Shown: positions 10,720-31,739 of the stretch, one piece after another
How the letters are laid out: every line of letters starts with the position of its first letter
How positions within the stretch are numbered: the first letter of the stretch is position 1
Notes under the pieces: model-generated
Database searches by the model: none
Seen by the model: the letters and a program-made list of their open reading frames with translations, nothing else
What the model was told of the DNA's origin: nothing
Source of the DNA: Spirochaetia bacterium
GTDB lineage: Bacteria > Spirochaetota > Spirochaetia > UBA9216
Direction of reading: 5' to 3'
Length of the DNA stretch: 64,000 bases
NCBI GenBank assembly: GCA_965140585.1
Contig: OZ223269.1
Span: 715,542 to 779,541 of the forward strand
Translations under genes and position numbers: made by a program

Positions 10720-10783
10720 AAAAAAATTATAATTTTTAGGTTTTCAAATTGCAAATCATTTTTGGTTACATACAATTAATAAT

Positions 10784-11233
10784 ATGAACAATAGAAAAAA
10801 TTTTTTACTAATATTGATGATAGCGACAGTTGGAGTTGTCTTCTCTCAATCAAATGATCTGATTGACGAAACACTTTCACAGATACAACTGAGCTGTGGT
10901 AACGGTGCATATCTTGCACTTACCGCTGCAGGTTTGATCAGCGAAAACTCAACAGATGAAGAAGCTGTGTCCTTTTTAAAACAGGAAGGCTGGATTGGAA
11001 AATCACGCAGTGCTGATGAGCCAATGACTCTTGGTGAATACTCACTGGCCTTAATGAAAAGCTTCTCAATGCCGGGAGGTATAATGTATACAATCTTCCC
11101 ATCAGCACGATACGCTTCAAGAGAGTTAGGGTATCTAGGTTACATCAGCAAGGATTCCGGAGCCTATCGCAGTTTGAGTGGTAGTGAAGCAGTATCCATT
11201 CTCGGTCAGATTATAAGGAGCAGAAGCAAATGA
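10784..11233 (+). CDS. Small exported protein of unknown function (first gene of the exported-protein operon)
   Basis: 149 aa with an N-terminal signal peptide and no recognised domain. Its stop overlaps the next start (ATGA). Confidence 0.5.
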   Translation: MNNRKNFLLILMIATVGVVFSQSNDLIDETLSQIQLSCGNGAYLALTAAGLISENSTDEEAVSFLKQEGWIGKSRSADEPMTLGEYSLALMKSFSMPGGIMYTIFPSARYASRELGYLGYISKDSGAYRSLSGSEAVSILGQIIRSRSK

Positions 11234-12519
11234 CGAAACGAACAATAATTTTTCTGTTACTTATTCGTGTGACGGTAATGGGTATCAGCGCTGCCGATTT
11301 CGGGTTAACTACAGATGCTACTTCTTCACTGCCGTATACCAGCGGGACAGATATCGACTGGACTGGTCTGACTTATACAGTAAAAAGCGCGCTCTGGGCA
11401 AACGGACGGCTAAGCGATGAATTGACTGGGGAAGTTCAGGGAGGATTTACGATAACTGAAAGCCGTGTTTTCCTGTTGGAACTCGATCAGCTTCAGCTTG
11501 CCGGAAGTTTTATTTTACCGGGATCCCCTGCAGGAGCGCTTTCTTTTAAAGCCGGGCGTATTTCTTTTTCTGAATTCTCGGGCAAGGTTTTTGTGCATAC
11601 GGGGGATGGAATCAGTTTTGAATATGGACTGCCCGGTATGAGTATGTCAGCTTTCGGAGCTTATACCGGACTACTGCAGGGACCTTCATCGACCATCTTG
11701 ATGAATAATTCGGATGTTGCCGCTCAGGCAGTAACCCCCTTGCCATTATGGGGTCCGCTTTCTTCTCCACGAATTGTAGAGGGTGTTTCATTTACATTTC
11801 CTGAGCTCTTTGCTCAGCAGACTCTTATTCTGACAGGTATTTTTCAGCAGGATATGAGGCCGGTTGACGAATTCGTAACCGGTGATTCAGCAATAAATAC
11901 ATTCTATGCAGGATTCGGGCTTATGGGGCCGATTCAGCCGGTCGCTTCACTCTTCTACAGTATATACGGATACGGTAATACCGGCTGGTATGGCAGCAAT
12001 ACTATCCTTTCATACATTGCTGGTGGCGGAATAAATTATCTTATGCCTAAGTTCCTTTCGTCACGGTTTGCACTTGAATTTACTTATTCAAGCGGTGATG
12101 CCGATCAGTCTGTTTTTTACGAAGGAAATACTGCAGGTTATTCAAACTCCTTCATTCCTATAACCCCGGCTCCTGCCGGTTTGGTATTTACCGCTCAGCA
12201 GACAAATCTCTTTTATTTGAGCTGCGGCTATTCAATCAAACCGTTTTCTATGACTGGTAGTGCCGCTCTGCAGAATACAGTGGTTCTTCTGAAAGGCATT
12301 GGTTTTTTCAGGAGCACAACGGGGGCAATAAGCACTGGCGGAGTAAAAACCGGAGAAACTGGACTGTATCTTGGTACAGAGGCAGATTTAAGTATAATGG
12401 CAAGGTTTCTGTCTGATTTAGGCTTTTCATTGTCGGGCGGAGTCTTCTTTCCGTCAGATATAATGGAGACTACTTCGCCTCAGATTAAAGCAACTGTAGC
12501 TGTATCATTATCGATGTAG
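11230..12519 (+). CDS. Exported protein, possibly an outer-membrane beta-barrel
   Basis: 429 aa with signal peptide. Aromatic/Gly-rich alternating hydrophobic pattern (YSIYGYGNTGWYG...). Translationally coupled to the upstream gene. Confidence 0.45.
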   Translation: MTKRTIIFLLLIRVTVMGISAADFGLTTDATSSLPYTSGTDIDWTGLTYTVKSALWANGRLSDELTGEVQGGFTITESRVFLLELDQLQLAGSFILPGSPAGALSFKAGRISFSEFSGKVFVHTGDGISFEYGLPGMSMSAFGAYTGLLQGPSSTILMNNSDVAAQAVTPLPLWGPLSSPRIVEGVSFTFPELFAQQTLILTGIFQQDMRPVDEFVTGDSAINTFYAGFGLMGPIQPVASLFYSIYGYGNTGWYGSNTILSYIAGGGINYLMPKFLSSRFALEFTYSSGDADQSVFYEGNTAGYSNSFIPITPAPAGLVFTAQQTNLFYLSCGYSIKPFSMTGSAALQNTVVLLKGIGFFRSTTGAISTGGVKTGETGLYLGTEADLSIMARFLSDLGFSLSGGVFFPSDIMETTSPQIKATVAVSLSM

Positions 12520-12541
12520 CAGAATAAACGGAGGAAAAGTA

Positions 12542-13501
12542 ATGAAAACATTCAGATTCTATTTAATAATTATATGTCTTGTTTTTATAACGAATTTTTT
12601 ATATAGCACAGATTTAAAGGCCATTGTACAGGAAGCGAACGGTAAGGTTGAAGTAAAAAGAGGAGGCGCGGCATGGGAATCGGTAAAGGTTGGTGATATT
12701 TTGTCTTCCGGAGACAGTATTTCAACCGGTTTTAACTCAAAAGCCGTGCTCGTCCTGGGCGATACCTCAGTCCTTGTAGCGAAGGATCTTACAAGGCTTA
12801 CGCTTGCCGAACTATATGAGAAGGAAGGAACGGTTGTGACCGATCTTTTTCTCGATATAGGAAATATTAGGGCTGAGGTTCATTCAAGCGATGAAGTTTC
12901 CAACGATTTTCAAGTTAGGAACGCCAATTCGACCGCATCGGTCAGGGGGACGGTCCTCGATGTTGCAATACTCGGCGACGGCCGGGGGATGAAAGTAATG
13001 GCTTGGGATGGTATGGCTCTGGTTACGGACATCCGTTCTGGTAGAAAGGCTCAGGTTGGAGAAGCTAAAAAGAAGAAGGATGAAAAAGCCGGCCAGGATT
13101 CCGAAGAATCCGGAGACGGAGAAAGTGAAGATAGCGGGAGTGGAGAATCCGGTTCTGATGATGGAACAGATTCTGAAGGCGGCGGGTCAGGTGCGGACAG
13201 CGAAACTGGAGCAGCAAATATGGGAATGCCTTCGGAACCTCCGGCGGAAATAGCTGCAGCGCCGCTTATGGCAAGCGGGAATGGTGGCGGAATGGTGTCG
13301 TCCATGGCTTCTGCAATAGCAGCATCAACCGTAACAGTAAGTACTAAACCTCCTTCACCTGCAGTTATTTCTACCGGCGGTGGTACCTCGGCATCGACTG
13401 AAACAGCAGCGGCAGCCGTAGTTGAAGAAATAATCGGAGGAACAACACTTCCTGTAATTACAACTAGCTCTGTAAGCATTCAGGTTGTATGGCCGGAATA
13501 G
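12542..13501 (+). CDS. FecR-domain exported protein with acidic G/S/E/D low-complexity linker and Ser/Thr/Ala-rich C-terminus
   Basis: 319 aa. N-terminal TM/signal segment. FecR-like beta-sandwich region (VEVKRGGAAWESVKVGDIL...AVLVLGDTSVLV). Then KKKKDEKAGQDSEESGDGESEDSGSGESGSDDGTDSEGGGSG. Confidence 0.6.
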   Translation: MKTFRFYLIIICLVFITNFLYSTDLKAIVQEANGKVEVKRGGAAWESVKVGDILSSGDSISTGFNSKAVLVLGDTSVLVAKDLTRLTLAELYEKEGTVVTDLFLDIGNIRAEVHSSDEVSNDFQVRNANSTASVRGTVLDVAILGDGRGMKVMAWDGMALVTDIRSGRKAQVGEAKKKKDEKAGQDSEESGDGESEDSGSGESGSDDGTDSEGGGSGADSETGAANMGMPSEPPAEIAAAPLMASGNGGGMVSSMASAIAASTVTVSTKPPSPAVISTGGGTSASTETAAAAVVEEIIGGTTLPVITTSSVSIQVVWPE

Positions 13502-13520
13502 GCTGGCAAGGTTGAACCGA

Positions 13521-14834
13521 ATGAAAACAAGACTAAATTTAATTATTTTAATAATTACAGTTATCCTGATTGGCTCCTGTAATCCGCTTATTATAGAGGA
13601 GCCTAATCTTAGCTATGTATCAATAGATACAGGGATAACACTTGGCTTTGCTGGCAGTAGGGCTTCTGTGAGTGATGTGGCATCTTTCCGACTAAAGGTT
13701 GAAGCTTCGGACATGGAAGAAATTGAGCAGACTTACACCGAAAGTATTATTAACATAAAAGTGGAAGCCGGAAGCGGACGAACTTTTACACTGACAGCTT
13801 TTGATGCAATCGGAAACAATCTGTTTTCCGGTAGCAGTAAAGTTGATCTTGTTGCAGGACAATCTGCTGAAATAGTTATAACAATGGATTATTCCGGTTT
13901 CTACGTCATTTTCAACACTAACGGTGGAGGAACCATCTCGACAAAGTATGTTGAAAGCGGTGGAATCCTGACTACTCCAACAGTACCTGTAAAAACAGGT
14001 TATGCATTTGGAGGTTGGTATTCAGATGCTGACTTTATTGCATTATGGAACTTCAGTACAGATACAGTTAATTCTGATGTAACTCTGTATGCCAAATGGA
14101 CTGCAAACACATATTCTTTAACCTTTGATGGTAACGGTTCTTCCGGTGGAGCAATGACAAACCTTTCTGTTGATTATGATGGGACTGTTTCTCTGACATC
14201 CAACGGATATACTTTAACTGGGTATACGTTTATAGGATGGAACACTGCAAGTAATGGATCAGGCATTTACTATGCTGATACTGCCAGCTATACACATACA
14301 ACAGCAGGAAACATTACTCTATATGCTCAGTGGCAGGTTCTTCCAAGTCTGAATTTTATCCAGACTGATGTTCTTGGTAGTACATCGCCTTATACAGGAT
14401 GGAACTGGACGCGATATAATGATACTGTTAATTCAAATAGTTTTTTGATTACACCCAGCAGCTCTGCAAATTATTATACTATAGAGGTTTCTGATGGTAC
14501 TGAAACTGTATTTACAAGTATTCAGCTTTATGATACCGGAAACTGGAGTACCGCTACAATTAATTTCTATGCTTATTCTAACGGAGTTCAAACCGGTTCT
14601 GAAACTTATACAGGCGATGTTCCATATGCAACTGGGGGATATAAACATACTTTCAGTGATACAGCTTTCAGTAATGCCGATATGATAGTTATTCAACCGT
14701 TGCAATCTGATGGAACATCCCCGACTCCTATATGTCTTGATGATATTATTACCGATTTGTTTGGTACGATAGATTTTGAAACAACAACCGGGCTAAGCGG
14801 GACTAGTACACCAACCGTGACTTATACACCTTAA
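13521..14834 (+). CDS. Lipoprotein carrying Listeria-Bacteroides (Flg_new-type) repeats. Paralog of 14970..16073
   Basis: Start chosen at MKTRLNLIILIITVILIGSC (lipobox); the track ORF begins 36 nt earlier. Repeats of the form TGYAFGGWYSDADF...VTLYAKWTANTYSLTFDGNGSSGG...YTFIGWNTASNGSG...ITLYAQW. Confidence 0.65.
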   Translation: MKTRLNLIILIITVILIGSCNPLIIEEPNLSYVSIDTGITLGFAGSRASVSDVASFRLKVEASDMEEIEQTYTESIINIKVEAGSGRTFTLTAFDAIGNNLFSGSSKVDLVAGQSAEIVITMDYSGFYVIFNTNGGGTISTKYVESGGILTTPTVPVKTGYAFGGWYSDADFIALWNFSTDTVNSDVTLYAKWTANTYSLTFDGNGSSGGAMTNLSVDYDGTVSLTSNGYTLTGYTFIGWNTASNGSGIYYADTASYTHTTAGNITLYAQWQVLPSLNFIQTDVLGSTSPYTGWNWTRYNDTVNSNSFLITPSSSANYYTIEVSDGTETVFTSIQLYDTGNWSTATINFYAYSNGVQTGSETYTGDVPYATGGYKHTFSDTAFSNADMIVIQPLQSDGTSPTPICLDDIITDLFGTIDFETTTGLSGTSTPTVTYTP

Positions 14835-14856
14835 TTTTAAGTATTAAAATTCAAAT

Positions 14857-14892
14857 CAGGGGATATCTGAAAATATCAGGTGTCCCCTTTTG
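14857..14892 (+). terminator. Putative intrinsic terminator between the two paralogous lipoprotein genes
   Basis: AGGGGA...TCCCCT stem containing an inner hairpin, followed by TTTTG. Confidence 0.4.
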
Positions 14893-14969
14893 AATAATCA
14901 TTATTGAATTAAAATTAATTATACGTCTGTATTTTTCTGTTATCAGTATCTTTATACAGAGGAGAGCTA

Positions 14970-16073
14970 ATGAAAACAAAACCGTTTTTAATATTTATAA
15001 TAATTGTGGTTATTATAGCCGGTTCCTGTAGTCCTTTTATCATGGAGGAGATTAATCTAAGCAAAGTATCGATAGATACCGGAATAATGCTTTCATCTGC
15101 CGGCAGCAGGGCTGCAGCAGGCGATGTGGTTTTATTCCGGCTAAAAGTGGAAGCGGATGACATGGAAACTATTGAAAAAGAATTCACAGAGAGTGAGATA
15201 AGCCTTGATGTGAAAGCCGGCGCTTCACGCACATTTACCCTGGAGGCTCTTGATGCAGATGACAACAAACTATTCTCCGGTGGTTCTACGAAAACTTTGA
15301 CTGCCGGTCAGTCTGTTTCAGTTAGTATAACGATGGATTATTCTGGTTTTTATGTCAGTTTTAATACAGACGGAGCAGGAACCATCTCGACGCAGTATGT
15401 TGCAAGCGGCGGACTTGTAACTGCACCGACAGAACCTGTAAAAACAGGATACACATTCGGCGGCTGGTATACAGATGCTGCCTTTACTACAGCTTGGAAT
15501 TTGGCTTCAAGTATTGTCAATTCTGATATAACGCTTTATTTGAAATGGAATCTTCTTGCAGTCGGGAACATTGGACCAAGCGGAGGTTATGTTTTTTACG
15601 ACAAGGGAGCATATTCTGACGGTTGGCGTTATATTGAAGCCTACCCAGTAGATTTATATAATTCAATTGCCGCTGATTATTGGTTTTACTTTGCAAATGC
15701 TCAAAATGGTTATGATGTTACAACAACTACATCAGCAATTGGCTCTGGTTTGGAAAATACTGCATTAATAGTGGCACAAAGGGAAACAGCAAATCCTTCA
15801 ATTGATTCCAATACAGCAGCTCAAGTATGTGATACCGCTAACAGTTACGGTTATTCTGATTGGTTCCTGCCCTCGTATAATGAGCTATACTTGATGTATT
15901 CAGAATTGCATTTAAACAGTTTAGGATCCTTTACTGATACATCATACTGGAGTTCAACAGATACAGAGAATGACGATTGTGCATGGGCATTAAATTTTTC
16001 AAACGGGTCAGGCGCTTCCGGTGGGAACTGGCATTCGAACGGCGGTTATGTGAGGCCTGCAAGACGATTTTGA
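14970..16073 (+). CDS. Lipoprotein with the shared N-terminal module and a C-terminal DUF1566 (Lcl C-terminal) domain
   Basis: 367 aa. Lipobox IIAGSC with RBS GGAGAG. The first ~190 aa are ~65% identical to 13521..14834. C-terminus carries YSDWFLPSYNELYLMY...YWSSTD...AWALNFSNGSG...GYVRPAR (DUF1566 signature). Confidence 0.7.
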   Translation: MKTKPFLIFIIIVVIIAGSCSPFIMEEINLSKVSIDTGIMLSSAGSRAAAGDVVLFRLKVEADDMETIEKEFTESEISLDVKAGASRTFTLEALDADDNKLFSGGSTKTLTAGQSVSVSITMDYSGFYVSFNTDGAGTISTQYVASGGLVTAPTEPVKTGYTFGGWYTDAAFTTAWNLASSIVNSDITLYLKWNLLAVGNIGPSGGYVFYDKGAYSDGWRYIEAYPVDLYNSIAADYWFYFANAQNGYDVTTTTSAIGSGLENTALIVAQRETANPSIDSNTAAQVCDTANSYGYSDWFLPSYNELYLMYSELHLNSLGSFTDTSYWSSTDTENDDCAWALNFSNGSGASGGNWHSNGGYVRPARRF

Positions 16074-18730: not shown

Positions 18731-21691
18731 ATGAATCTTGAAGAACTGAGATTTTACTATGACAAATTTAAATACGGTGAAGATAACTTTCATAATCTGA
18801 TGCAGTACCGCGTTAAAGAGATACTTCTTATTTCTACTTTCTACGATGCTTACATATTTGAGCATGATTCTCTTCTTTCAGAGCAGATAGTTGGTGAGTA
18901 TCACCAGCTTAACCTGACAACTGTGCCGAGAATCACCAGCACGCCTACCGGTGCTGATGCGCTTAACCTGCTTCGTGAAAGACGTTTTGATCTTGTAATC
19001 ACAACTCTGAGGACAGGTGAAGAGAGCAGTTTTGAACTATCTGCCAAGATTAAGGAAGTGCAGCCTGATGTTCCTGTAATACTGCTTTTAACGGTGCAGT
19101 CTGATATAGCCCTAGTAAACAGAAACCGGAACAGGCTTGAGCATATCGAGAATATATTTCTATGGAACGGAGATTCAAAGCTTATTCTCGCAATGATAAA
19201 GTTTATCGAGGATAAGAAAAATGCTCCCTATGATACTGAACATGGCCTGGTTAAGGTTATACTGCTGGTTGAAGATTCAATTAACTTCATCTCGATATAT
19301 CTGCCTCTGCTGTATACCGAGATCATGGAGCAGACTCAGAGGCTTATTTCCGAAGAGCTGAATGACAACCAGAAATACAACCGGATGCGTACGAGGCCTA
19401 AGGTAATAGTTACTGACAGTTACGAAAAAGGTGTGGAGCTTTATGAACAGTACCAGGAGCATATTCTTTGCGTCATGTCTGATATGGAATTTTATAAAGA
19501 TAATGCGCTGGATGGAGACGCCGGAATTAAATTCCTTGGCAAGATCAGAAATGAGAATCCTGACATGCCCTGTATTCTGCAGTCGTCAGTACTGACAAAC
19601 AGGAGGAGGGCTGAGCAGCTTGGCGTTAATTTCTTTCATAAACAGTCACAGTTTCTTCTGAAAGATCTGCGGAATTTCATTATCGAAAATCTGGGCTTCG
19701 GTGACCTGGTTTTCAGGGATGAAGACGGCGGTGAAATAGCGAGGGCCAGAAATCTGGGTGATTTTGAAAGAATCATTCCTGAGCTTCCCCTGGAATCACT
19801 GCTGAGTCACAGCCGGAAAAAGGATTTCTCATCATGGCTGATTGCGCATGGAGAAATGCAGCTTGCACGTATTCTGCGTCCGGTCGAAGCAGAAGATTTT
19901 AATAACTATGATACATATCGCAAGTATCTGCTTCAGCAGTTTATGAAGCTGCGTCGTATGAGAAACCGCGGAAAGATAGTCAGCCTTAATCTCGAAAGTT
20001 TAAAGAATGACGGTGTAATCAATCGAATCGGTTCTGGCTCTCTAGGCGGAAAGGGCCGTGGACTTGCTTTTTTCAATTCATTTCTCGTAACGACCGAGTT
20101 TGAAAATAAATTTAAGGATGTTCTGGTTAAAATTCCAAGAACAACCATCATCGGAACTTCGGTGTTCAGTGATTTTGTAAATGAAAACAACCTTTTTGAA
20201 CTCAGGAACAGTCCAGATGACGAAGATATCAAACATAAATTTGTAGCTGGAAAGCTCTCGCCGTTTGTTATTGAAAGACTGATGCTTTTTCTTGAAGAAG
20301 TCAGGGTTCCCCTGGCAGTACGTTCCTCGGGGCTTCTGGAAGATTCACAGTCTCAGCCCTTTGCCGGTGTTTATCAGACATACATGATTCCAAATAATGA
20401 TAACAGCATTGAGCAGCGCCTGAAACAGCTTACAAATGCTATAAAACTCGTTTATTCATCCGTATTTTTAAATAACACCCGGAAGTACATTGAAAATCTT
20501 AACTACCTCATTGAGGAAGAGCGAATGGCCGTAGTAATACAGGAAGTCGTAGGGCGTACATATGACAGCTATTATTACCCGCATGTTTCCGGTGTAGGGC
20601 AGTCGTTTAATTACTATCCACTGGGAAATATGAAAAATACTGATGGAGTTGCTTCGATTGCCGTGGGTCTTGGGCAGGCTGTCGTTGACGGTGAGAAGAA
20701 CTATAGATTCTGTCCGGAATATCCTACTGTTTCGTATCTTTCCGATGAGGAGATTGTAAAGTCTACGCAGACTCATTTCTATGCGATAGATCTGGATAAA
20801 AAAGATACTGACATCCTGAAGGGCGAATATGAAACACTCTCCAGGCTGCGCGTGAATGTTGCCGAAAAGCACCGGAATCTTTATCACATGGCATCAGTCT
20901 GGGATTCTCAAAACCAGAGGATGGTGGATGGTATCAGTTCGCCCGGGCCCAGAGTAATTAATTTTGCAAATATTCTGAAATACAATGTATTCCCCCTCTC
21001 AGATATTGTTAAAGAAGTTCTTGAGATGGCACAGGCTGCACTTGGAGTTCCTGTTGAAATTGAATTTGCTGTTGATTTAACTAAAACTACTGATGAACTG
21101 CCGTCCTTTTATCTGCTTCAGGTTCGTCCTATGACAGTTAATCTTGATGAGGCTTGTATCGATTTTAAAAGTCTTGATAAGGATGATTTGATTCTCTATA
21201 CAGAGGAAGGGCTTGGAAACGGGCTCATCGATGATATCAGGGATATAATTTTCATAGCCCCGGAGGATTTTGATAATACAAAGACTATGGAAATGCAGCT
21301 GGAAATTGAAATGCTCAACGATAAGATGAAAGAAGCGGGTAGGGAATACATCCTTATTGCTCCCGGACGCTGGGGTTCACGTGACAGATTTCTCGGAATT
21401 CCTGTTTTGTGGTCTCAAATAAGCAAAGCCAGGGTAATTGTTGAGGTTGGACTTGAAAATTTTGATATTGAACCCTCACAGGGTACTCATTTTTTTCATA
21501 ATGTCGTTGCAATGAATATTGGCTATTTTAATGTTCCTCATAAGAAGAAAAAAAGGTCAAATATTGATTGGAATCACATAAAAAGCTTTAAAGGTGCTGT
21601 AAAGTATCAATATTTCACGCATATTGTGAATGATACACCATTTAAAGTTATCATGGATGGTAAAAACTCTATGTCTATCATACAAAAGTAA
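18731..21691 (+). CDS. Multi-domain signalling protein: pseudo-receiver + canonical receiver domain fused to a PEP/pyruvate-binding (PPDK_N, ATP-grasp) kinase-like domain
   Basis: 986 aa. Second receiver has LLVEDS, SDMEFY (phospho-Asp), PCILQSS and K. Then GSGSLGGKGRGLAFF glycine-rich loop and ATP-grasp-like core. C-terminal PGRWGSRD...GIPVLW resembles a swivel domain but has no His. Confidence 0.6.
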   Translation: MNLEELRFYYDKFKYGEDNFHNLMQYRVKEILLISTFYDAYIFEHDSLLSEQIVGEYHQLNLTTVPRITSTPTGADALNLLRERRFDLVITTLRTGEESSFELSAKIKEVQPDVPVILLLTVQSDIALVNRNRNRLEHIENIFLWNGDSKLILAMIKFIEDKKNAPYDTEHGLVKVILLVEDSINFISIYLPLLYTEIMEQTQRLISEELNDNQKYNRMRTRPKVIVTDSYEKGVELYEQYQEHILCVMSDMEFYKDNALDGDAGIKFLGKIRNENPDMPCILQSSVLTNRRRAEQLGVNFFHKQSQFLLKDLRNFIIENLGFGDLVFRDEDGGEIARARNLGDFERIIPELPLESLLSHSRKKDFSSWLIAHGEMQLARILRPVEAEDFNNYDTYRKYLLQQFMKLRRMRNRGKIVSLNLESLKNDGVINRIGSGSLGGKGRGLAFFNSFLVTTEFENKFKDVLVKIPRTTIIGTSVFSDFVNENNLFELRNSPDDEDIKHKFVAGKLSPFVIERLMLFLEEVRVPLAVRSSGLLEDSQSQPFAGVYQTYMIPNNDNSIEQRLKQLTNAIKLVYSSVFLNNTRKYIENLNYLIEEERMAVVIQEVVGRTYDSYYYPHVSGVGQSFNYYPLGNMKNTDGVASIAVGLGQAVVDGEKNYRFCPEYPTVSYLSDEEIVKSTQTHFYAIDLDKKDTDILKGEYETLSRLRVNVAEKHRNLYHMASVWDSQNQRMVDGISSPGPRVINFANILKYNVFPLSDIVKEVLEMAQAALGVPVEIEFAVDLTKTTDELPSFYLLQVRPMTVNLDEACIDFKSLDKDDLILYTEEGLGNGLIDDIRDIIFIAPEDFDNTKTMEMQLEIEMLNDKMKEAGREYILIAPGRWGSRDRFLGIPVLWSQISKARVIVEVGLENFDIEPSQGTHFFHNVVAMNIGYFNVPHKKKKRSNIDWNHIKSFKGAVKYQYFTHIVNDTPFKVIMDGKNSMSIIQK

Positions 21692-21735: not shown

Positions 21736-23154
<1,419 letters not shown>

Positions 23155-23244: not shown

Positions 23245-24444
23245 CTATATTAAAGATCTTAAAGATGACTTTTTAATAAGATCATGAATTCCTGAAACAG
23301 GATTCCTGACCTTGCTTAAAAAGATCATGGCAGCAATTATATAGGGTTTATACCCTGCTTCTATATAAGTTGTTTTTCTATACCTGTCAAATACAGATGC
23401 TGCTACCTCTCCATGTTCACAGCTTACACCGCTTATGTCTGCAGGCAGGCAGTGCATATAAACAGCCTTTCCATCTTTTGTCTTTCTCATCAGTTCTTCA
23501 CTGCATTCCCATGACATATAATCTTTGTTCTGTTCTAGACAGTTTTTCTCTAACTGAACCAGACCTTCCCGATCATTTTCACGAAACAGCTTGGTGCGTT
23601 TTTCCATTACGCTGAAAGGCGCCCAGCTTTTCGGGTACACAATATCAGCCCCTTCAAAGGCTTCTTCCATTGAGTTTGTGACATTAAAGCTTCCGCCGCT
23701 TTTGGTAGAAAATCCTTTTGCAATTTCAACGGTTTCATCTATTAGGTTATACCCCGGCGGATAAGCAAGACTCACATCCATTCCAAAACGGCTCATTAAC
23801 CCGATTACGCCCTGCGGAACAGAAAGAGGTTTTCCGTAGGATGGGGAGTAAGCCCAGGTCATTGCAACTTTTTTCCCCTTTAGCTGGTCAACACCGCCGA
23901 AGGTATTTATTAGGTGAAGTGTATCAGCCATAGCCTGGGTTGGATGGTCAAGATCGCACTGAAGGTTAACAAGTGCAGGTTTTGAAGGTATAATACCGTC
24001 CTTAAAATCTTCACTTAGAGATTTTGCAACCTCTGTCATGTAGGTATGTCCTTCACCTATGAAGATATCGTCTCTTATTCCGATTGCTTCTGTTAGAAAA
24101 CTAATCATACAAGCGGTCTCTCTGACTGTTTCACCGTGTGCTATCTGAGATTTCTGTTCATCAAGATCCTGTACCGTAAGACCCAGAAGGTTTGCAGCGC
24201 TGGCAAATGAAAACCTTGTTCGAGTGGAATTATCCCTGAAGATTGAAACAGCAAGACCGGAATCAAATATTCTTGGAGATATATTGCTTTTACGCAGCAG
24301 CCTGAGCAGTTCAGCAGTTTTAAAAACAGCATCAATTTCTTCGAATGTTTTATCCCAGGTGAGAAGAAAATCTCCTCCAAACATTTTAGACCAGTCAAGG
24401 CCGTTAAGTTCAGTCAGTAATTTTTTTATTTCCTTGTTCTCCAT
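23245..24444 (-). CDS. ygeW: YgeW-type knotted carbamoyltransferase
   Basis: 399 aa. Co-linear with E. coli YgeW (FRDNSTRTRFS.ASA.NLLGL, SQIAHGETVRETA.MISF, LVNLQCD.DHPTQ.MAD, HCLPADISGVSC). Last gene of the long minus-strand operon. Confidence 0.9.
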   Translation of the reverse strand: MENKEIKKLLTELNGLDWSKMFGGDFLLTWDKTFEEIDAVFKTAELLRLLRKSNISPRIFDSGLAVSIFRDNSTRTRFSFASAANLLGLTVQDLDEQKSQIAHGETVRETACMISFLTEAIGIRDDIFIGEGHTYMTEVAKSLSEDFKDGIIPSKPALVNLQCDLDHPTQAMADTLHLINTFGGVDQLKGKKVAMTWAYSPSYGKPLSVPQGVIGLMSRFGMDVSLAYPPGYNLIDETVEIAKGFSTKSGGSFNVTNSMEEAFEGADIVYPKSWAPFSVMEKRTKLFRENDREGLVQLEKNCLEQNKDYMSWECSEELMRKTKDGKAVYMHCLPADISGVSCEHGEVAASVFDRYRKTTYIEAGYKPYIIAAMIFLSKVRNPVSGIHDLIKKSSLRSLI

Positions 24445-24474
24445 CTTTATCCTCTCTTTCAGAAAATTCGTCTT

Positions 24475-25836
24475 TTAAAATTTATTAAGAAGTGCTGAAG
24501 AAATTTCCCTTGTTTTGAATGAAAGTTCATCTTCATCAAATCCTGTAAGTTCTCCTTTGCAGACGGTAATCTTTCCGTTAACTATTGTATATTTAGTTGT
24601 ATGATTATGACCGCAGAAAATAAGTGATGCGAGCGGGTCGGACTCTGAGCCTGCGTATTCCAGTCCTGAAATATCAAAAACTGCAACATCTGCAGCATAG
24701 CCCTGTTTAATATATCCGATAGTATCGTAATTAAGTGTTTTGGCTCCACCTGCAGAAGCGATACCGAAAGCCTCTTTGACTGTCAAACCGGATGCTCCGT
24801 ATTTGATTCTCTGCAGCATCAGAGCAGTTCTTATCTCACCCAGCATGTCGCAGCTGTCATTTGAAGCTGAACCGTCAACAGCAAGACTGACATTTATTCC
24901 ACGGTCAATCATCTCTCTGACTCGCGCTATTCCTGAGCCAAGACGCATGTTCGATGAAGGGCAATGACATATACTGCATCCGGAATCTTTGAGGTAAGAA
25001 AGTTCTTCATCATTGAAATGTATTCCATGGGCAAAAGAAACATCATGACCGGTAAAATCACAGCTTTTCATCAGCTCCAGTGGCCTTATTCCATGTTTAT
25101 TGATACAGAAATCATTCTCATCGTGGGTTTCGGCCAGATGAGTATGCAAAAGTACATTCTTCTCACGAGCAAGTAAGGCTGTTTCTTTCATTAGTTCTGT
25201 TGTCACTGAAAAAGGGCTGCATGGGGCCAGTATAATTCTCTGCATTGAATATTTATCAGCATCATGGAAATCTTTTATTACCCGTTCACTGTCTTTGATT
25301 ATTTCTGCACCTGTCTGTACCACTGAATCAGGAGGCAGGCCTCCATCCTTTCTGCTGAGCGACATGGAGCCTCTTGTGGGTGAAAAACGTAATCCCAGCT
25401 TTCCAGCTGCTTCAAACTGAAGCCCCATAATATCTCCGCTAAAGCCGGAAGGATAAAGATAATGGTGATCTGTTGAACATGTACATCCGGTTTTCATCAA
25501 TTCAGCAGCAGCGCAAAGTGAGGAATAATATACAGCATCAGAGTCAATATTCTTCCATTTTTCATAGAGAAAAACCAGCCATTCAAACAGTTCGGCATTC
25601 TGAACTTCCGGAAGGTTGCGAGTAAGGACCTGGTAGAAATGATGATGTGTATTCACAAACCCTGGAACCGCTATACAGCCGCTGCAGTCTATTATTTCAT
25701 GAGAAGGATAATGGGAAAAGTCCATGTCAGCTGTACTTATAACGGCCTCAATGGTATTTCCATTGATAATAAGGTTCACATCAGAATAAAGCTGTGATCC
25801 GTTGTATAAAGATTTAAGATTTTTCAGTATCAGCAT
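24475..25836 (-). CDS. TRZ/ATZ-family amidohydrolase (8-oxoguanine/guanine deaminase or chlorohydrolase-like)
   Basis: 453 aa. VPGFVNTHHHFYQ metal-binding motif. HTHLAETHDE. Downstream HGIHF...D also typical of this family. Confidence 0.75.
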   Translation of the reverse strand: MLILKNLKSLYNGSQLYSDVNLIINGNTIEAVISTADMDFSHYPSHEIIDCSGCIAVPGFVNTHHHFYQVLTRNLPEVQNAELFEWLVFLYEKWKNIDSDAVYYSSLCAAAELMKTGCTCSTDHHYLYPSGFSGDIMGLQFEAAGKLGLRFSPTRGSMSLSRKDGGLPPDSVVQTGAEIIKDSERVIKDFHDADKYSMQRIILAPCSPFSVTTELMKETALLAREKNVLLHTHLAETHDENDFCINKHGIRPLELMKSCDFTGHDVSFAHGIHFNDEELSYLKDSGCSICHCPSSNMRLGSGIARVREMIDRGINVSLAVDGSASNDSCDMLGEIRTALMLQRIKYGASGLTVKEAFGIASAGGAKTLNYDTIGYIKQGYAADVAVFDISGLEYAGSESDPLASLIFCGHNHTTKYTIVNGKITVCKGELTGFDEDELSFKTREISSALLNKF

Positions 25837-26737
25837 TTTTATCTCCGGTGGAAATGATAATCTCTTTTATCAGCCGAAGTGCAGTATTAAATCTGTACCT
25901 TGCGGTACTGCGCTGATCGTTAATGGGTTTTAAAAGGCTGGAATAAATTTCAACTGCACTGTCAATTTTTTTATGGTCTTCTGCAGGATTTATACCAATC
26001 AGCAGATCTTCAGCTTCCTCACTTCTTATTATCTGCGGACCGCATGCCCCGACTGCTATTCTTATATCTTCCAGAGATCCCTCAACCAGCTTCCATGCTG
26101 CTGCAATGTTCAGTTTGGATAATGCATTAGCAGCCCTTGTTCCGATTTTGATAAATCTCGTCTGTAATTCTGAATCATATGTCATGCTGATGCCGCGAAG
26201 AAGTTCACCTGCTTTAAGGTCGGTAGAACCCGGTCCTGTGATAAAATCATCTATCGCAATTTTCCTTATTGCTGTCCCGGCTTCACTGTTTTTTGTATTT
26301 ACTAATGAGATACATTCAATTTCAGTATCAAGTATATATAAAACAGGTAAGGAATCGGCGGCCGGACTTGCGTTGCATATATTGCCCGCAAGAGTCGCGG
26401 TATTTCGGATTCCCGGAGAGGCAATGTGCTTTAATGCTTCTACAAGAGGCGGAGGGGTATCACTGTGTTCAATCAGGTCGGACAGAACAACAGAAGCCCC
26501 GGCATAAAACAGCGAGCAGTCTTTTTCAATCACATCAAAATCTTTAATTCGTCCGGTATAGAAAATTTCAGAAAAATCTTGAATATTATTTTTTGAAGGA
26601 AATGAAGAAGACTGATTGAATATGGCATGACGTCTGACCATCAAATCTGTACCGCCTGATACAGGCACAAAACCTTTTTCGAGCAGAAGCAGTGCATCTT
26701 CTACATTTTTGGGTGAGAGATTCATTATTTCCGCCAT
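25814..26737 (-). CDS. Xanthine dehydrogenase family, FAD-binding subunit (set 1)
   Basis: 307 aa. CO-dehydrogenase flavoprotein-like N-terminus (VSGGTDLMV). Position in an Mo/2Fe-2S/FAD trio. Confidence 0.75.
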   Translation of the reverse strand: MAEIMNLSPKNVEDALLLLEKGFVPVSGGTDLMVRRHAIFNQSSSFPSKNNIQDFSEIFYTGRIKDFDVIEKDCSLFYAGASVVLSDLIEHSDTPPPLVEALKHIASPGIRNTATLAGNICNASPAADSLPVLYILDTEIECISLVNTKNSEAGTAIRKIAIDDFITGPGSTDLKAGELLRGISMTYDSELQTRFIKIGTRAANALSKLNIAAAWKLVEGSLEDIRIAVGACGPQIIRSEEAEDLLIGINPAEDHKKIDSAVEIYSSLLKPINDQRSTARYRFNTALRLIKEIIISTGDKNADTEKS

Positions 26738-27219
26738 ATGTGAGCTCCGTTTTCAGAGGCCTTTTTTACAGCTTCTATAATCATACTGTATCCAGTGCAG
26801 CGGCAGAGATTACCTGAAAGGCCTTCTTTTATTTGTTCACCGTCAGGAACCGGATTTTTTCTAAGCAGAGCAGCAGTTGCCAGAATAAAACCGGGAGTAC
26901 AGAATCCGCACTGCACAGCGCCGCATTGAGCATATGCTTCTGAAATTATCCGGAATTCCTCGGTTTTGCTGAATCCTTCGATAGTTATTATTTCATCGCC
27001 ATCTACTGCTGCCGCAGGAACGGTGCAGGAATTAACAAGCCTGCCGTTTCTGAAAACACTGCAGGCTCCGCATTCTCCCTCACCGCAGCCTTCCTTTACG
27101 CCCGTAAGTTGAAAATTATTCCGCAGAATATCAAGCAGCCGATCAGAAGGGCCGGCGGTTATTTCAATGTCTTTTCCGTTAAGATTAAATTTCAGGTTAA
27201 TTTTTACCTTGCTGTTCAT
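26725..27219 (-). CDS. Xanthine dehydrogenase family, [2Fe-2S] iron-sulfur subunit (set 1)
   Basis: 164 aa. CGEGECGACSV plant-ferredoxin cluster and CGFCTPG...CRCTGY second cluster. Confidence 0.85.
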   Translation of the reverse strand: MNSKVKINLKFNLNGKDIEITAGPSDRLLDILRNNFQLTGVKEGCGEGECGACSVFRNGRLVNSCTVPAAAVDGDEIITIEGFSKTEEFRIISEAYAQCGAVQCGFCTPGFILATAALLRKNPVPDGEQIKEGLSGNLCRCTGYSMIIEAVKKASENGAHIWRK

Positions 27220-29354
27220 GACTGTTCCTCGAGCATTTCCGGTGTTACAGGTATGCTGTACTGTATTTTTCCCACGGCCTGTGATACAGCTGCTGCTACA
27301 GCGGCAGCAGGACCTTCGTTTGGAAGTTCACCTGCAGCCTTGGCCCCAAAGGGGCCGCGGGGGTATGGGTTATCCATAAAATGGCATTCTGTCTCAGGAA
27401 AATCCATTGTCGTCGGGATGGTATAGTCTGTGAAAGAGGCCTGAGCGAATTGCCCTTTATGAAGTACCATGTTCTCTATTGTTGAATACCCGAAAGCCTG
27501 GGCTGTTCCTCCATGCATCTGGCCCTTCAGTATGTTTATGTCGATCGGTGTTCCTACATCATAAACCGCCCAGGAACCCTTTATTTCAATCTGCCTGGTT
27601 AAACTGTCAATTTCGACTTCTACAACATTTACTGACCAGCTATACCCCGGATAAGCATCACCGCTGAATGTCTTTTCATCCCAAACAAGTTCTGCTGGAT
27701 GCATATACCGCTTTTCTACGGTAATTTCATCTGAATAATTTCTTACAGAATCTTTGAGTTTTAATGATAGTTCAGCTGCAGCATCAGCGAGAAGCTTGCC
27801 GACAATCATTACCGTGCGGGAAGCTACCGTCGGCCCAGAATCAGGAACCTCAGCAGTATCAGGCTGCTGAAAAACAATGTTACAAAGCGGGATATTCATT
27901 GTTTCAGCAACGATCTTTCTAAGAGTGGTTGATGCTCCCTGACCCATTTCAACATTTGAAACCAGCACTGTTATTACGGGTTTCTCAGGGTCGGAATCGG
28001 CCGGAGAAGCTTTCAGCCTTACGAGACTTTTTATGATTTCCTGTTCACCGCTTCCGGTAAAGGCGCCTCCGTGTGCAGCATATGAAATACCTATGCCGCG
28101 TATCTTATGGCTTTGCAAATTTTCCGGCTTTGAATAACGTTCATATTTTTCTGTATATCCGGATACTTTATTAACCTTCTCAAACATCTGTTTAAGAAGT
28201 ATATCATCGCGGAAAAGCCCTCCGGTAACCGACAGGTCTCCTTTTTTAAGCAAATGATTTAATTTAAACTCGGATGGATCCTGTTTAAGTGCCTTTGCGA
28301 CTGCATACATATTCATCTCTGCGGCAAACAAAGCCTGCGGGCCTCCAAACCCTCTGAACGCTCCTGAAGGCACATGATTTGTTTTCATGGTTCTGCCGCG
28401 GACATTCAGATTCTCTATATTGTAAGCTCCGCTGCAGATAAAAACTGCTCGTTCAAGAACTACCCCCGATAGAGTCTGAAATGCCCCGGCGTCAATTTTT
28501 GTATCAATATCAAGTGCTGTAATCCGGTTATCTTTATCTACCGCTGTACGGATACGTATGACTGAAGGATGGCGTTTTGGAGTGACGGTCATGTCATACC
28601 TGCGGTCAAGTACTATTCTAACAGGCGAACCGGATTTTATTGCTGCGGCTGCCGCCTGTGATGCCAGTATGGAAGGATAATCCTCCTTGCCTCCAAAGGC
28701 TCCTCCCGTGACAGACTGGATAATCCGTATCTTCTCGGGGGCAATTTTGAAACTGGCCGCAAGTGAGTTTTTTACGTAGTAGGGACATTGCAGGGAGCCG
28801 TAGATCATCAGGGAGCCGTCATTATAGACTGCAGTCATTGCCTGGGGTTCCATATATGCCTGTTCCTGAATACCTGTACTGAATTCATTAACAAATATTT
28901 TCCATGCCGAACTGAAGCTTTTTTCAGGATCACCTTTTTTGATATGATAGTCATTGAACCACTCTACAGCTTCACTGATTCCGGAAATAGCGTCTGTCCG
29001 GATATAATCAATTTTAATATCCGAAGCCAGTTGCCTGCATATGTTCCGGTCAGGTCCTGATACAACACATAAGGTCTGGCCGTAGAAGGAAATTTCCTTT
29101 GCAGCAAAAATCGGCCAGTCCTGTGCAACAATGCTTGCTCTGTTCAGGCCGTCTATATCATCTGCTCCAGTTATGAAATAACCTTCAGGCAGTTCGGGGT
29201 AATGGATAGATTCAATAGTTCCGCATTGAATGGAGGAGGCTACCGGTATGCCCCAGGTAAGTCCTTCAAAATCGAGATCCGCGGTGTACTTCGCTTTTCC
29301 TGATGCTTTAGAAGCGGCATCTGTTCTGATTACCGGATTACTGATTTTGTGCAT
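27216..29354 (-). CDS. Xanthine dehydrogenase family, molybdopterin-binding large subunit (set 1)
   Basis: 712 aa. Aldehyde oxidase/xanthine DH a/b hammerhead and MoCo-binding regions (GGAFGGK, SGAFRGFGGPQ). Confidence 0.85.
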   Translation of the reverse strand: MHKISNPVIRTDAASKASGKAKYTADLDFEGLTWGIPVASSIQCGTIESIHYPELPEGYFITGADDIDGLNRASIVAQDWPIFAAKEISFYGQTLCVVSGPDRNICRQLASDIKIDYIRTDAISGISEAVEWFNDYHIKKGDPEKSFSSAWKIFVNEFSTGIQEQAYMEPQAMTAVYNDGSLMIYGSLQCPYYVKNSLAASFKIAPEKIRIIQSVTGGAFGGKEDYPSILASQAAAAAIKSGSPVRIVLDRRYDMTVTPKRHPSVIRIRTAVDKDNRITALDIDTKIDAGAFQTLSGVVLERAVFICSGAYNIENLNVRGRTMKTNHVPSGAFRGFGGPQALFAAEMNMYAVAKALKQDPSEFKLNHLLKKGDLSVTGGLFRDDILLKQMFEKVNKVSGYTEKYERYSKPENLQSHKIRGIGISYAAHGGAFTGSGEQEIIKSLVRLKASPADSDPEKPVITVLVSNVEMGQGASTTLRKIVAETMNIPLCNIVFQQPDTAEVPDSGPTVASRTVMIVGKLLADAAAELSLKLKDSVRNYSDEITVEKRYMHPAELVWDEKTFSGDAYPGYSWSVNVVEVEIDSLTRQIEIKGSWAVYDVGTPIDINILKGQMHGGTAQAFGYSTIENMVLHKGQFAQASFTDYTIPTTMDFPETECHFMDNPYPRGPFGAKAAGELPNEGPAAAVAAAVSQAVGKIQYSIPVTPEMLEEQS

Positions 29355-29355
29355 A

Positions 29356-30522
29356 TTAAACTCCGTCTAATTCAAGCCCTTTCATCGCTCCGTCAATATC
29401 TTTTAAGCCGCTGCCTGTTACAAGAAGAACCACAGTGGCCCTGTCAGATATATGTTTTCTGACAGAAAGAAGTCCGGCGAGTACAGAGGCTGATGATGGC
29501 TCTGCAAATAATCCTGTGGATGATGCTAGTTTTTTCTGAGCTTTCAGAATTTCAGCGTCTGAAACATCTATCCCGACTCCGGAATGCTGTATCAGTTTTT
29601 TCATGGCAAGATAACCGTTTCGGGGGATATCAACTGAAATTGAATCAGCAATCGTGGCGGATGAAACAGGGTCTGAAAAATCTCCGTTTTTTAAAGCTCT
29701 GTTTATGGCATTTGAACCCTCGGCCTGAACACTGTGAATAACCGGAATTTTTTCTGAAAGCCCCAGACGGATTAGATCTTCAAAACCTCTGTACAGTCCG
29801 CCAAGAATTACTCCGTCTCCTACCGGAACAAAGATATAGTCAGGAACCTTTCCGAGCTGAAGAAATATTTCAAGCGCTGCTGTTTTTTTACCTGCGAGTG
29901 TGAGGGGATTAAAAGCAGTATTCCTGTTCAGACCTCCGTTTTTCCTCGTGTAAGCGATTGACTGATCAAAGGCCAGATCATAAGTGCCGTCAACAAGAGT
30001 TACTTCTGCTCCATACTGAAGGGACTGAACCATTTTTGCTTTAGGTGCAGATTTAGGTATAAAGATTTTTATTTTCTGTCCTGCTGATGCTCCGATTCCG
30101 GACATTGAGGATGCCGCATTTCCTGTCGAAGCAACCGTTATTTCATTTATCCTGTATTTTTTAGCAAATGCCGAAACAAGGTAGGACGCACGATCTTTAA
30201 GGCTTCCGGTAGGATTCAGTGTATCGTCTTTGATAAACAGTTCTTCAAGATTAAGTTCTTTGCGTAGATTTTCCGGTTTCCATAGCGGAGTGCTGCCCAC
30301 CGGAGCGGGAGGGAAATATTTTTTTTCTACAGGCAGAAGTCTGTGAATGAAACCCTGGCGGTCCTTTGTATTTGTATCTGTTTTTCCTTCAAAGGTGGTT
30401 TCAAGAACTCCTTTAAGCGGTCTGTTTTCAGGCTGCCTTGAAGTGCATGAAGGACATAGATATACATCAGGCTTAATGTCATAGGTTTTACCGCAGTCAG
30501 TGCATCTGTAATAGAATTTCAA
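29356..30522 (-). CDS. Threonine-synthase-like PLP-dependent enzyme (fold type II) with N-terminal zinc ribbon
   Basis: 388 aa. CTDCGKTY...CPSC ribbon. PTGSLKDRASY PLP-lysine motif. Sits where ygeX is in the E. coli cluster but is not YgeX-like. Confidence 0.65.
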   Translation of the reverse strand: MKFYYRCTDCGKTYDIKPDVYLCPSCTSRQPENRPLKGVLETTFEGKTDTNTKDRQGFIHRLLPVEKKYFPPAPVGSTPLWKPENLRKELNLEELFIKDDTLNPTGSLKDRASYLVSAFAKKYRINEITVASTGNAASSMSGIGASAGQKIKIFIPKSAPKAKMVQSLQYGAEVTLVDGTYDLAFDQSIAYTRKNGGLNRNTAFNPLTLAGKKTAALEIFLQLGKVPDYIFVPVGDGVILGGLYRGFEDLIRLGLSEKIPVIHSVQAEGSNAINRALKNGDFSDPVSSATIADSISVDIPRNGYLAMKKLIQHSGVGIDVSDAEILKAQKKLASSTGLFAEPSSASVLAGLLSVRKHISDRATVVLLVTGSGLKDIDGAMKGLELDGV

Positions 30523-31739
30523 TTTTCGTTTCCTTCAAGCTGCGCATCAAGCGAGTAGACAAGAGCGGTGTAGAAGGCACTGCACAGCATGAGATCATCA
30601 ATCCTGTTAACTTCATTCGGTGCGTGAGCCTGATTTTCATCACCGGGCCCGAATCCTATTGAAGGAATTCCGTGACGGCCGCAGACTGAAACAGCATTGG
30701 TAGAGAAGGTCCACTTATCGACCTTTACATCCCTGTTAAACAGGCTTTTATATGCAGCTTCGCCTGATGTGACAAGTTTATGATCACGTCCTATCTTCCA
30801 TGTAGGAAAATAAAGCGGCTGACTGTATTTAGTTCCTTTCCAGCTGATTTTATCGTAGTAGGGCACTGTAACTGATTCAGCATCAGGCATGATTTTTTTG
30901 ATTTGCTCTACAGCAAGTTCTTCGGTTTCTCCCCATGTCAGTCTTCGATCAAGGTAGAGTTTTGCCTGATCGGGTACCGCACATTGAGACGGTCCGTGGG
31001 CTTCCATAACAGAAACAACAACTGTTCCCTTTCCGAGAAAATTATCCTCATCAGGTTCCAGTTCTTCATTGAGTTTTTCTGCTGCTAATGCTCCTTTCGC
31101 AGCCTTATATGCAGCACTTACTCCGCGTTCAGGAGCACTTCCGTGACAGGAGATTCCCTTGAAAATTACTTCCATTTCCATTCGGCCGCGGTGGCCGCGG
31201 TACAGATTGCAGGATGAGGGCTCGGTACTTACAAAGTAATCTGGTACAAGCTTTTCTTCTTCAATAATGAATTTCCAGCACATGCCGTCACAGTCTTCTT
31301 CCATGACTGTAAATGTGAAAAACACTGAGAACTTTCCGTCATAGCCTAGTTCTTTCAGCATACGGCCGGCTGTAATCATGGATGCGGCGCCGCCTTTCTG
31401 ATCTGCTGTTCCCCGGCCTTTTACCAGCTCATCTGTTATTTGCCCGGAGAAGGGCGGAGTTGTCCATTGTTTTTCATCACCGACGGTGACTGTATCAATA
31501 TGCGCATCGAAGGCAATTTTCATCGGACCGTTTCCTACACGTCCAATCAGATTTCCGAGTCCGTCAATATAGACATCATCAAAACCGGCATCTGCACATA
31601 GCGTCTGAAGTCTTTTGATAACATCCTCCTCCTGACCGCTGAAACTCGGTATCTGAACAATCTTCGACAGATTGTCTGCTGTGTAGTCCCTGTATTTTTG
31701 GGAAAGGTCTTCTATGAGGCTGTAAATTTCGGATGTCAT
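30519..31739 (-). CDS. ygeY: YgeY-type M20 family peptidase/amidohydrolase
   Basis: 406 aa. Near co-linear with E. coli YgeY (AHIDTV, GRGT.DQKGG.ASM, EEDCDG.CW..IIE, YRG.RGRME, SCHGSAPERG, DKWTFSTN, GFGPG...AHAPNE). Confidence 0.9.
   Translation of the reverse strand: MTSEIYSLIEDLSQKYRDYTADNLSKIVQIPSFSGQEEDVIKRLQTLCADAGFDDVYIDGLGNLIGRVGNGPMKIAFDAHIDTVTVGDEKQWTTPPFSGQITDELVKGRGTADQKGGAASMITAGRMLKELGYDGKFSVFFTFTVMEEDCDGMCWKFIIEEEKLVPDYFVSTEPSSCNLYRGHRGRMEMEVIFKGISCHGSAPERGVSAAYKAAKGALAAEKLNEELEPDEDNFLGKGTVVVSVMEAHGPSQCAVPDQAKLYLDRRLTWGETEELAVEQIKKIMPDAESVTVPYYDKISWKGTKYSQPLYFPTWKIGRDHKLVTSGEAAYKSLFNRDVKVDKWTFSTNAVSVCGRHGIPSIGFGPGDENQAHAPNEVNRIDDLMLCSAFYTALVYSLDAQLEGNEN

Follow-up and report, generated by a model that had tools for sequence, protein, structure and literature searches.

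A 986-amino-acid protein encoded in a 64,000-nucleotide stretch of DNA from a Spirochaetia bacterium (contig OZ223269.1, positions 715,542 to 779,541; hereafter, the window) combines two receiver domains with an ATP-grasp domain of the type found in phosphoenolpyruvate (PEP) synthase and pyruvate phosphate dikinase (PPDK). We hypothesized that it works as an orphan response regulator with a dikinase-type phosphotransferase as its output, directed at the glutamate/2-oxoglutarate node, a reading to which we give about an even chance. The open reading frame (ORF) consists of 986 codons and a stop, and a GGGAG Shine-Dalgarno sequence precedes it, with the ATG eight bases further on. A database entry 100% identical to the protein exists. 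Residue conservation was assessed in alignments of 81 close relatives, of 83 broader full-length relatives translated from genomes, and of 150 modules sharing 32-49% identity. The organization of the gene, in window coordinates, is as follows.

18731 to 21691, forward strand: the whole ORF, with a pseudo-receiver, a receiver, a DUF5752-like domain, a PPDK_N ATP-grasp domain and a swivel-like C-terminal domain, in this order
18731 to 18814, forward strand: N-terminal peptide, amino acids 1-28, with the pattern YY.KFK.GEDNFHNLM, strongly conserved and modeled with low confidence
18815 to 19240, forward strand: first receiver (REC1), a pseudo-receiver, amino acids about 29-170, from the Pfam Response_reg match, the (β/α)5 secondary structure and residue counts
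19250 to 19690, forward strand: second receiver (REC2), canonical, amino acids about 174-320, with E181, D182, D251 (codon 19481-19483), S285 and K304
19691 to 20026, forward strand: DUF5752-like domain, amino acids about 321-432, below the PF19027 threshold in this protein and above it in relatives
20027 to 21145, forward strand: PPDK_N-type ATP-grasp domain, amino acids about 433-805, with K441 (codon 20051-20053), R531-S-S, E537-D538, E776/E778 and Q797/R799
21146 to 21688, forward strand: C-terminal α/β domain, amino acids 806-986, with invariant G879-R880-W-G882, E905 and S916-x-G918-[ST]-H920 (H920 codon 21488-21490)

The full-length structure was predicted with confidence (predicted local distance difference test score, pLDDT, 85.5; predicted template modeling score, pTM, 0.72). 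The N-terminal peptide was modeled at a pLDDT of 43-56, falling below 50 at residues 13-23, yet it is among the best-conserved stretches of the protein and is possibly a docking or autoinhibitory segment. No NCBIfam model comes close to its cut-off and, therefore, no curated family covers the protein; the best hit, a PEP-synthase model, scored 48 bits versus a cut-off of 883. No Rfam family was matched in the gene or its flanks. The names found in databases are generic ("PEP/pyruvate-binding domain-containing protein", "response regulator", "CheY-like"), and the first of them is misleading because the protein has no PEP/pyruvate-binding TIM (triosephosphate isomerase) barrel.

The Pfam Response_reg family (PF00072) was matched in two stretches of the protein. 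When scanned alone, REC1 scored 28 bits (E = 2.7e-6) and REC2 a weak 16 bits, the latter because of its insertions: a long α1, an additional helix after it, and a small hairpin behind D251. The model of REC1 shows the receiver fold, with strands at residues 30-34, 67-71, 88-91, 116-120 and 141-144. S35/T36 (A/S and T/N in relatives) replace the acidic pair, and N146 replaces the conserved Lys. The phospho-Asp site is occupied by T92, and among the 83 broader relatives this position is Met in 73, Thr in six, Ile in three, Ser in one and Asp in none. REC1 is thus a conserved pseudo-receiver that keeps the fold and lacks the phospho-acceptor Asp, the acidic pair and the Lys. In REC2, E181, D251, S285 and K304 are each present in 83/83 relatives and D182 in 82/83, and all five are invariant in the set of 81. 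The model places these residues at the C-terminal ends of strands 176-180, 245-251, 281-285 and 300-303 (β1, β3, β4 and β5). By these fold and residue criteria, REC2 is a canonical, fully competent receiver. The initial annotation of this gene, made from the sequence, had described a degenerate first receiver followed by a canonical second one, and both descriptions are borne out. In Foldseek searches the pair matched PleD over about 400 columns (E about 1e-9). PleD likewise carries tandem receivers, one degenerate and one phosphorylatable, ahead of its enzyme domain. The order in the window protein is reversed, with the pseudo-receiver first, and the output is of the dikinase type instead of a GGDEF cyclase.

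The PPDK_N family (PF01326) was matched at residues 437-805, covering profile positions 3-313 of 328, with an E value of 9.7e-36 and 124.1 bits against a cut-off of 27. Close relatives show little or no variation in the glycine loop GSGSLGGKGRG (G436-S-x-G-G-K441-G-R) or in the motifs RSSGLLED, EIEF and LLQVRP. Among the 150 diverged modules, K441 is found in 147 and R531, S532, S533, E537, D538, E778 and Q797 in every one. We take the GGKG Lys, the RSS Arg, the E-x-E and the Q-x-R motifs to be equivalent to the ATP- and Mg-binding residues of PPDK. The closest match by sequence in the PDB was the rifampin phosphotransferase (RPH) of Listeria (E = 1.5e-6), the Foldseek structural matches included HpeI (3.5e-10) and PPDK (1e-4), and the NCBIfam PigC/RedH and PEP-synthase models matched the region below their cut-offs at E values of 1e-9 to 1e-13. 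The region looks like an active nucleotide site rather than a relic. The kinship with PEP synthase and RPH that the initial annotation had read from it is supported by the domain match and the conserved residues. Response_reg and PPDK_N, two of the three domains that it had expected, were matched in the profile searches; the third, PEP-utilizers, was not, even at E 10.

The third domain concerns the end of the protein, amino acids 806-986, which had been described as a swivel-like tail in which Arg occupies the position of the catalytic His. The absence of a His is not borne out. R884 is variable in the diverged modules (Ser in 64, Arg in 30, Ala in 23 of the 150). H920 was found in 150/150, as were S916 and G918, within the motif S-x-G-[ST]-H-F-F, where position 919 is Ser or Thr; the nearby H923 position is His in 85 and Gln in 58. 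Modeled alone, the domain reached a pLDDT of 88.8 and a pTM of 0.88, and H920 opens the helix 920-927, after a β-strand and a Gly loop. With H920 in register, the eight secondary structure elements of the PpsA swivel domain can all be paired one to one with those of the model: hairpin 820-841, helix 852-869, strand 873-878, short helix 894-897, strand 900-906, the Gly loop with helix 920-927, strand 931-935 and the terminal hairpin 963-985. The S-x-G-[ST]-H920 segment thereby falls at what we take to be the topological place of the dikinase GG-x-T-S-H motif. The register of the initial annotation, which set GRWGSR/GIPV on GG-x-TSH/GIP, was obtained only when hhalign was forced, with zero per-residue confidence, and it puts the third β-strand of the swivel domain onto the predicted long helix 852-869.

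As for the resemblance to a swivel domain, the order of the fold and the invariant His speak for it, and none of the searches returned a significant match. The last 181 amino acids had no match to PF00391 (the PEP-utilizers mobile domain) or to any other Pfam family at E 10, a profile search of PDB sequences with the domain gave none, and Foldseek of the isolated model against the PDB found nothing significant. The best structural match of the domain is the phosphoryl-carrier domain of PPDK. Alignments of 24 and then 201 C-terminal sequences were compared by hhalign with swivel profiles built from three and later 17 sequences (E. coli PpsA, PtsI and PtsP and plasmid-borne PpsA, PtsP, pyk and RPH-like genes). 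These comparisons were never significant (probability at most 0.5%), and confident alignment was limited to the first hairpin. The pLDDT dips at residues 801-820, where the ATP-grasp domain gives way to the C-terminal one, in keeping with a flexible tether. Taken together, the moderately supported conclusion is that this is probably a divergent phosphohistidine swivel domain, in which H920, judged from secondary structure order and conservation, likely corresponds to the catalytic His.

A rival explanation is that the domain only resembles the swivel fold and is, for instance, a partner- or ligand-binding domain, with H920 in a structural or binding role and the ATP-grasp domain acting as an ATP/AMP sensor or a ligase. 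Foldseek and every sequence method fail to tie the domain to PEP-utilizers, and its most conserved part, the G-P-G-R-W-G-S loop (R880 in 150/150), has to our knowledge no counterpart in canonical swivel domains. We nevertheless hold this explanation to be very unlikely: the strictly conserved catalytic residues of the ATP-grasp domain argue for catalysis, and the location after an ATP-grasp domain and a flexible linker matches that of the His domain of PEP synthase and PPDK, which directly follows the ATP-grasp domain behind such a linker. Moreover, an invariant [ST]-H at the N-terminus of a helix, as found here, is a hallmark of phospho-His carriers.

The likeness to PEP synthase (PpsA) and PPDK extends from the ATP-grasp domain, with its GGKG, RSS..ED, E-x-E and Q-x-R motifs, through a flexible linker to a small α/β domain with an invariant [ST]-H. 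There are also differences. The window protein ends 181 amino acids after the ATP-grasp domain, without the PEP/pyruvate-binding TIM barrel (no PEP-utilizers_C match), and carries two receivers and a DUF5752-like domain ahead of it. Its C-terminal domain measures 181 amino acids versus about 110 in the canonical swivel domain, includes a long inserted helix and the G-P-G-R-W-G-S loop, and is recognized by neither PF00391 nor hhalign. The protein does not count among the PEP-synthase or PPDK enzymes proper, because it has no TIM barrel and reaches 35-48 bits with the NCBIfam PEP-synthase models, whose cut-offs are 598-883. Enzyme I of the PEP:sugar phosphotransferase system (PTS), which lacks a receiver, differs in that PEP charges it at a TIM barrel, not ATP at an ATP-grasp domain. 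Of the systems compared, the protein would work most like a PEP synthase, PPDK or RPH joined to a PleD-style tandem receiver.

RPH, PigC/RedH, phenylphosphate synthase and HpeHI are the closest relatives of the ATP-grasp domain, and they also combine it with a swivel His without a TIM barrel. Unlike the window protein, in which none is evident, these small-molecule dikinases have a substrate-binding domain or subunit of their own; they have no receiver fusion, and the window protein falls far below their NCBIfam cut-offs. Between REC2 and the ATP-grasp domain lies a further domain, at amino acids about 321-432, which the initial annotation did not include. It is formed by a β-hairpin and five helices with invariant LGFGD and H360..S367.W369L..A372.GE motifs. 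The window protein scored 13.2 bits against DUF5752 (PF19027), under the cut-off of 23, and at the same position the cut-off was passed in relatives P0124 and P0125 (about 25.5 bits) and P0135 (27.3 bits). Several close homologues also carry precomputed PF19027 matches. No literature on DUF5752 was found. A receiver-regulated enzyme in which H920~P phosphorylates a metabolite bound at this domain or at a domain interface, in the manner of RPH, PigC, phenylphosphate synthase or HpeHI, would agree with the nearest ATP-grasp relatives (HpeI, Listeria RPH, the PigC/RedH models), with a conserved DUF5752-like domain accompanying the module, and with the metabolic enzymes encoded nearby. Candidate metabolites would be a 2-oxoacid, an amino acid derivative or a signaling precursor. 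We consider such an activity quite unlikely. Few receiver-controlled enzymes are ordinary pathway enzymes, a true stand-alone form of the module (P0142) lacks even the DUF5752-like domain, and the neighboring genes already complete a route from glutamate through 2-oxoglutarate to succinyl-CoA, in which a dikinase step is not obviously needed.

The genomic neighborhood, on which the initial annotation was silent, was judged the most informative feature. The next gene in the window encodes a GdhA-type glutamate dehydrogenase (GDH), with Pfam matches to ELFV_dehydrog_N (E = 1e-52) and ELFV_dehydrog (E = 4e-90).

21736 to 21764, forward strand: σ70-like promoter, TTGACA-17-TATATT, 11 of 12 positions matching (a consensus match only), in the gap preceding the GDH gene
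21808 to 23154, forward strand: GdhA-type GDH, 448 amino acids, ATG at 21808, Shine-Dalgarno sequence GGAGGAG

A GDH gene was also found next to the family gene at a spirochaete locus whose protein is 75% identical, at a locus with 53% identity (with a gap of 22 nucleotides), and upstream in one Bacillota genome. The association was counted in 83 non-redundant loci, taking as neighbors those with a phmmer E value below 1e-20 within 6 kb. GDH was present in 45 of the 83, and in 30 of the 45 loci flanked by 5 kb or more on each side; in 29 loci it lay within 500 nucleotides. The arrangement was divergent in 25 loci (Bacteroidota), downstream on the same strand in 15 (Spirochaetota and Cloacimonadota) and upstream on the same strand in four (Acidobacteriota and Bacillota). 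The linkage is seen in at least six phyla and in three differing gene orders. Adjacency by chance would be well under 1%, GDH being typically a single- or low-copy gene. Other recurrent neighbors were the α and β subunits of a 2-oxoacid:ferredoxin oxidoreductase, read as the 2-oxoglutarate enzyme (KorA/B; 14 and 17 loci, respectively), a GltD-like Fe-S flavoprotein (15), and NuoE-like (10) and NuoF-like (nine) proteins. At least one of GDH, KorA/B, GltD-like or NuoE/F-like genes was present in 44 of 53 well-flanked loci. These associations with GDH point to an undescribed control point for glutamate/2-oxoglutarate metabolism.

In Bacteroidota and Fidelibacterota, a NuoE-like, NuoF-like and GltD-like trio adjoins both GDH and the family gene (loci L012, L032, L036, L041 at about 9000-14940, L043, L066, L068 and L082 at 1567-5295). 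Its GltD-like member, of about 611 amino acids, has Fer4_20 and Pyr_redox_2 domains and a Cys-rich N-terminal extension. One possibility is that the trio forms a flavin-based NAD(P)H/ferredoxin module for GDH.

On the reading that we favor, D251 would be phosphorylated by an unlinked kinase or a small phosphodonor, and this would rearrange or dimerize the REC1-REC2 pair as in PleD, switching on the ATP-grasp domain. As happens in PEP synthase, PPDK and RPH, the latter would then phosphorylate or pyrophosphorylate H920, and the flexibly tethered C-terminal domain that carries this residue would hand the phosphoryl group on to an acceptor. The persistent position of the gene beside GDH, and often beside KorA/B and GltD/NuoEF-like genes, leads us to propose that the acceptor may be a component of the glutamate/2-oxoglutarate node. 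The leading candidate is GDH itself, which we name tentatively, as a possibility with a distinctly smaller chance of being right than of being wrong. The outcome would be post-translational control of ammonia assimilation or of glutamate catabolism in anaerobes. Nothing relevant to this was found in the literature on reversible inactivation of GDH in Bacteroides.

Several observations weigh against this proposal. No acceptor-binding domain is recognizable in the protein, whereas PPDK has its TIM barrel and RPH a rifampin-binding domain. The equivalence between H920 and the catalytic His is drawn from secondary structure order and conservation. The GDH gene of the window apparently has its own promoter, about a third of the well-flanked loci have no GDH nearby, and a shared neighborhood demonstrates a functional link, not a physical substrate.

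The protein belongs to a large family. At 90% identity, its homologues form more than 5,549 clusters, the best 120 of which all measure about 985-1,030 amino acids and have the same architecture; the closest named homologues share 73-76% identity and suggest a Spirochaetales-like source. A HMMER scan with amino acids 420-986 found 3,176 representatives at 50% identity, 805 of them at E values of 1e-30 or lower. Full-length relatives were detected in at least 597 species by a pattern scan of one genome per species. The carriers span at least eight phyla and include Spirochaetota, Cloacimonadota, Fidelibacterota/Marinimicrobia, Riflebacteria, Myxococcales, Chlorobiota and Bacillota, as well as Bacteroidota (Marinifilum, Labilibaculum, Mariniphaga, Paludibacter, Rikenellaceae) and Acidobacteriota (Geothrix, Holophagaceae). 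The initial annotation had presented a receiver-controlled dikinase-like module as an unusual signaling output. The domains and conserved residues agree with such a module, and we found no characterized example of the receiver plus PPDK_N architecture in the literature, Pfam or NCBIfam, but the number of clusters indicates that the fusion is not rare.

The dominant form has about 985 amino acids, and stand-alone modules, forms with longer N-termini and two-module proteins were also found. P0142 is a stand-alone module without receivers located mid-contig and, hence, genuine. P0125, which seemed to be receiver-less, is a split or frameshifted full-length gene whose upstream ORF encodes REC1 and REC2. 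In the long forms, a sensor-like domain of about 130 amino acids occurs in one to four copies at the N-terminus, and a conventional kinase domain is absent; the repeats occupy amino acids 1-150 of P0122, 1-640 of P0124 and 1-430 of P0159, share the motifs WQYPE ... G.IEVYY ... EGPFLKEER, and were not recognized by Pfam at E 1e-3. P0128, P0138 and P0147 (about 1,520-1,650 amino acids) consist of two tandem ATP-grasp plus C-terminal modules with no receiver.

The source of a phosphoryl group for D251 is a point at which a different scheme enters. A conventional histidine kinase was found nearby in just five of the 83 loci, with no recurrent kinase neighbor across loci and none among the larger window ORFs tested. 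A NarL/GerE-type regulator gene abuts the family gene in seven loci, twice with a spacing of -3/+4 nucleotides and often between the family gene and GDH.

NarL-type regulator genes: L034, 4706-5365; L084, 4814-5470; L080, 3938-4582; L045, 3986-4651; L070, 8916-9572; L072, 8971-9633; L089, 2885-3547

The phospho-acceptor Asp is missing in six of these seven regulators (V, V, N, N, N and H), making them atypical receivers, which weakens the idea that the family gene and the regulator form a kinase-regulator pair.

If the protein were a self-contained phosphorelay, and thereby its own histidine kinase, the ATP-grasp domain would take the place of a Bergerat-fold HATPase and phosphorylate H920. 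D251, in the same chain or dimer, would then receive the phosphoryl group from the swivel domain, and the effect on GDH or a partner regulator would come from the phosphorylated receiver pair, the DUF5752-like domain or the N-terminal peptide. All dikinases known to us contain the acceptor-binding domain within the same enzyme, and here the receivers and the DUF5752-like domain are the only further conserved domains. As a phospho-acceptor REC2 is complete, each of its catalytic residues occurring in 82-83 of 83 members, and the family is almost always orphan. The long variants are sensor-like and have neither HisKA nor HATPase, leaving the ATP-grasp as the sole ATP-using domain, and the NarL-type genes that adjoin the family gene in seven loci, twice at -3/+4 nucleotides, also count in its favor. 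We regard this scheme as unlikely. We know of no precedent for transfer from a swivel phospho-His to a receiver Asp; the six adjacent regulators without the Asp are not classical targets; receiver-free modules such as P0142 exist; and orphan response regulators are common anyway. A bolder form of it, in which the protein is a new type of histidine kinase, a one-protein ATP-grasp His-Asp relay (H920 to D251) governing GDH and nitrogen assimilation in Bacteroidota, Spirochaetota, Cloacimonadota, Acidobacteriota and other anaerobes, seems rather improbable.

Other features of the window were also recorded. The sole other obvious signaling protein found nearby is encoded at 8011-10719 (reverse strand), where a protein of 901 amino acids joins a CHASE2 sensor to a class III adenylate/guanylate cyclase domain. 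Two adjacent paralogous lipoprotein-like ORFs (13485-14834 and 14970-16073, forward strand) have in common an N-terminal region of about 200 amino acids and "GY(A/T)FGGWY.DA" repeats. A large cluster of the purine or uric acid fermentation type lies at 23245-37505 (reverse strand). It includes a YgeW-like carbamoyltransferase, an SsnA-like amidohydrolase, two xanthine dehydrogenase sets (FAD, 2Fe-2S and Mo subunits), a PALP enzyme, an M20 peptidase, a DHO_dh-like protein and a hydantoinase-like amidohydrolase. The 75%-identical homologue has a related arrangement beside it. At 42731-53621 (forward strand) there is a complete glycogen gene set, consisting of GlgC, an enzyme of the α-amylase family (putatively branching), a debranching enzyme (GDE_N/GDE_C), glycogen phosphorylase, an amylase-like glucanotransferase and glycogen synthase. 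The ORF at 55332-57551 (forward strand, 739 amino acids) has a PTA_PTB (phosphotransacetylase/butyrylase) domain at amino acids 17-349 and an acetate-kinase-like region at 550-682, and is a possible phosphotransacetylase-acetate kinase fusion.

Enzymatic outputs are well known among response regulators, and ATP-grasp/phospho-His dikinases are well known too; a description of their combination was not found, and the combination constitutes one of the larger uncharacterized signaling families. If H920 is a phosphocarrier, the dikinase superfamily gains a swivel domain so divergent that it escapes the profile libraries now in use. The adjacency to GDH and KorA/B offers a testable handle on the control of glutamate and 2-oxoglutarate in anaerobes without the classical NtrBC/GlnD/GlnE circuitry, with relevance to gut Bacteroidota, to the amino acid fermenters of digesters (Cloacimonadota) and to sediment communities.

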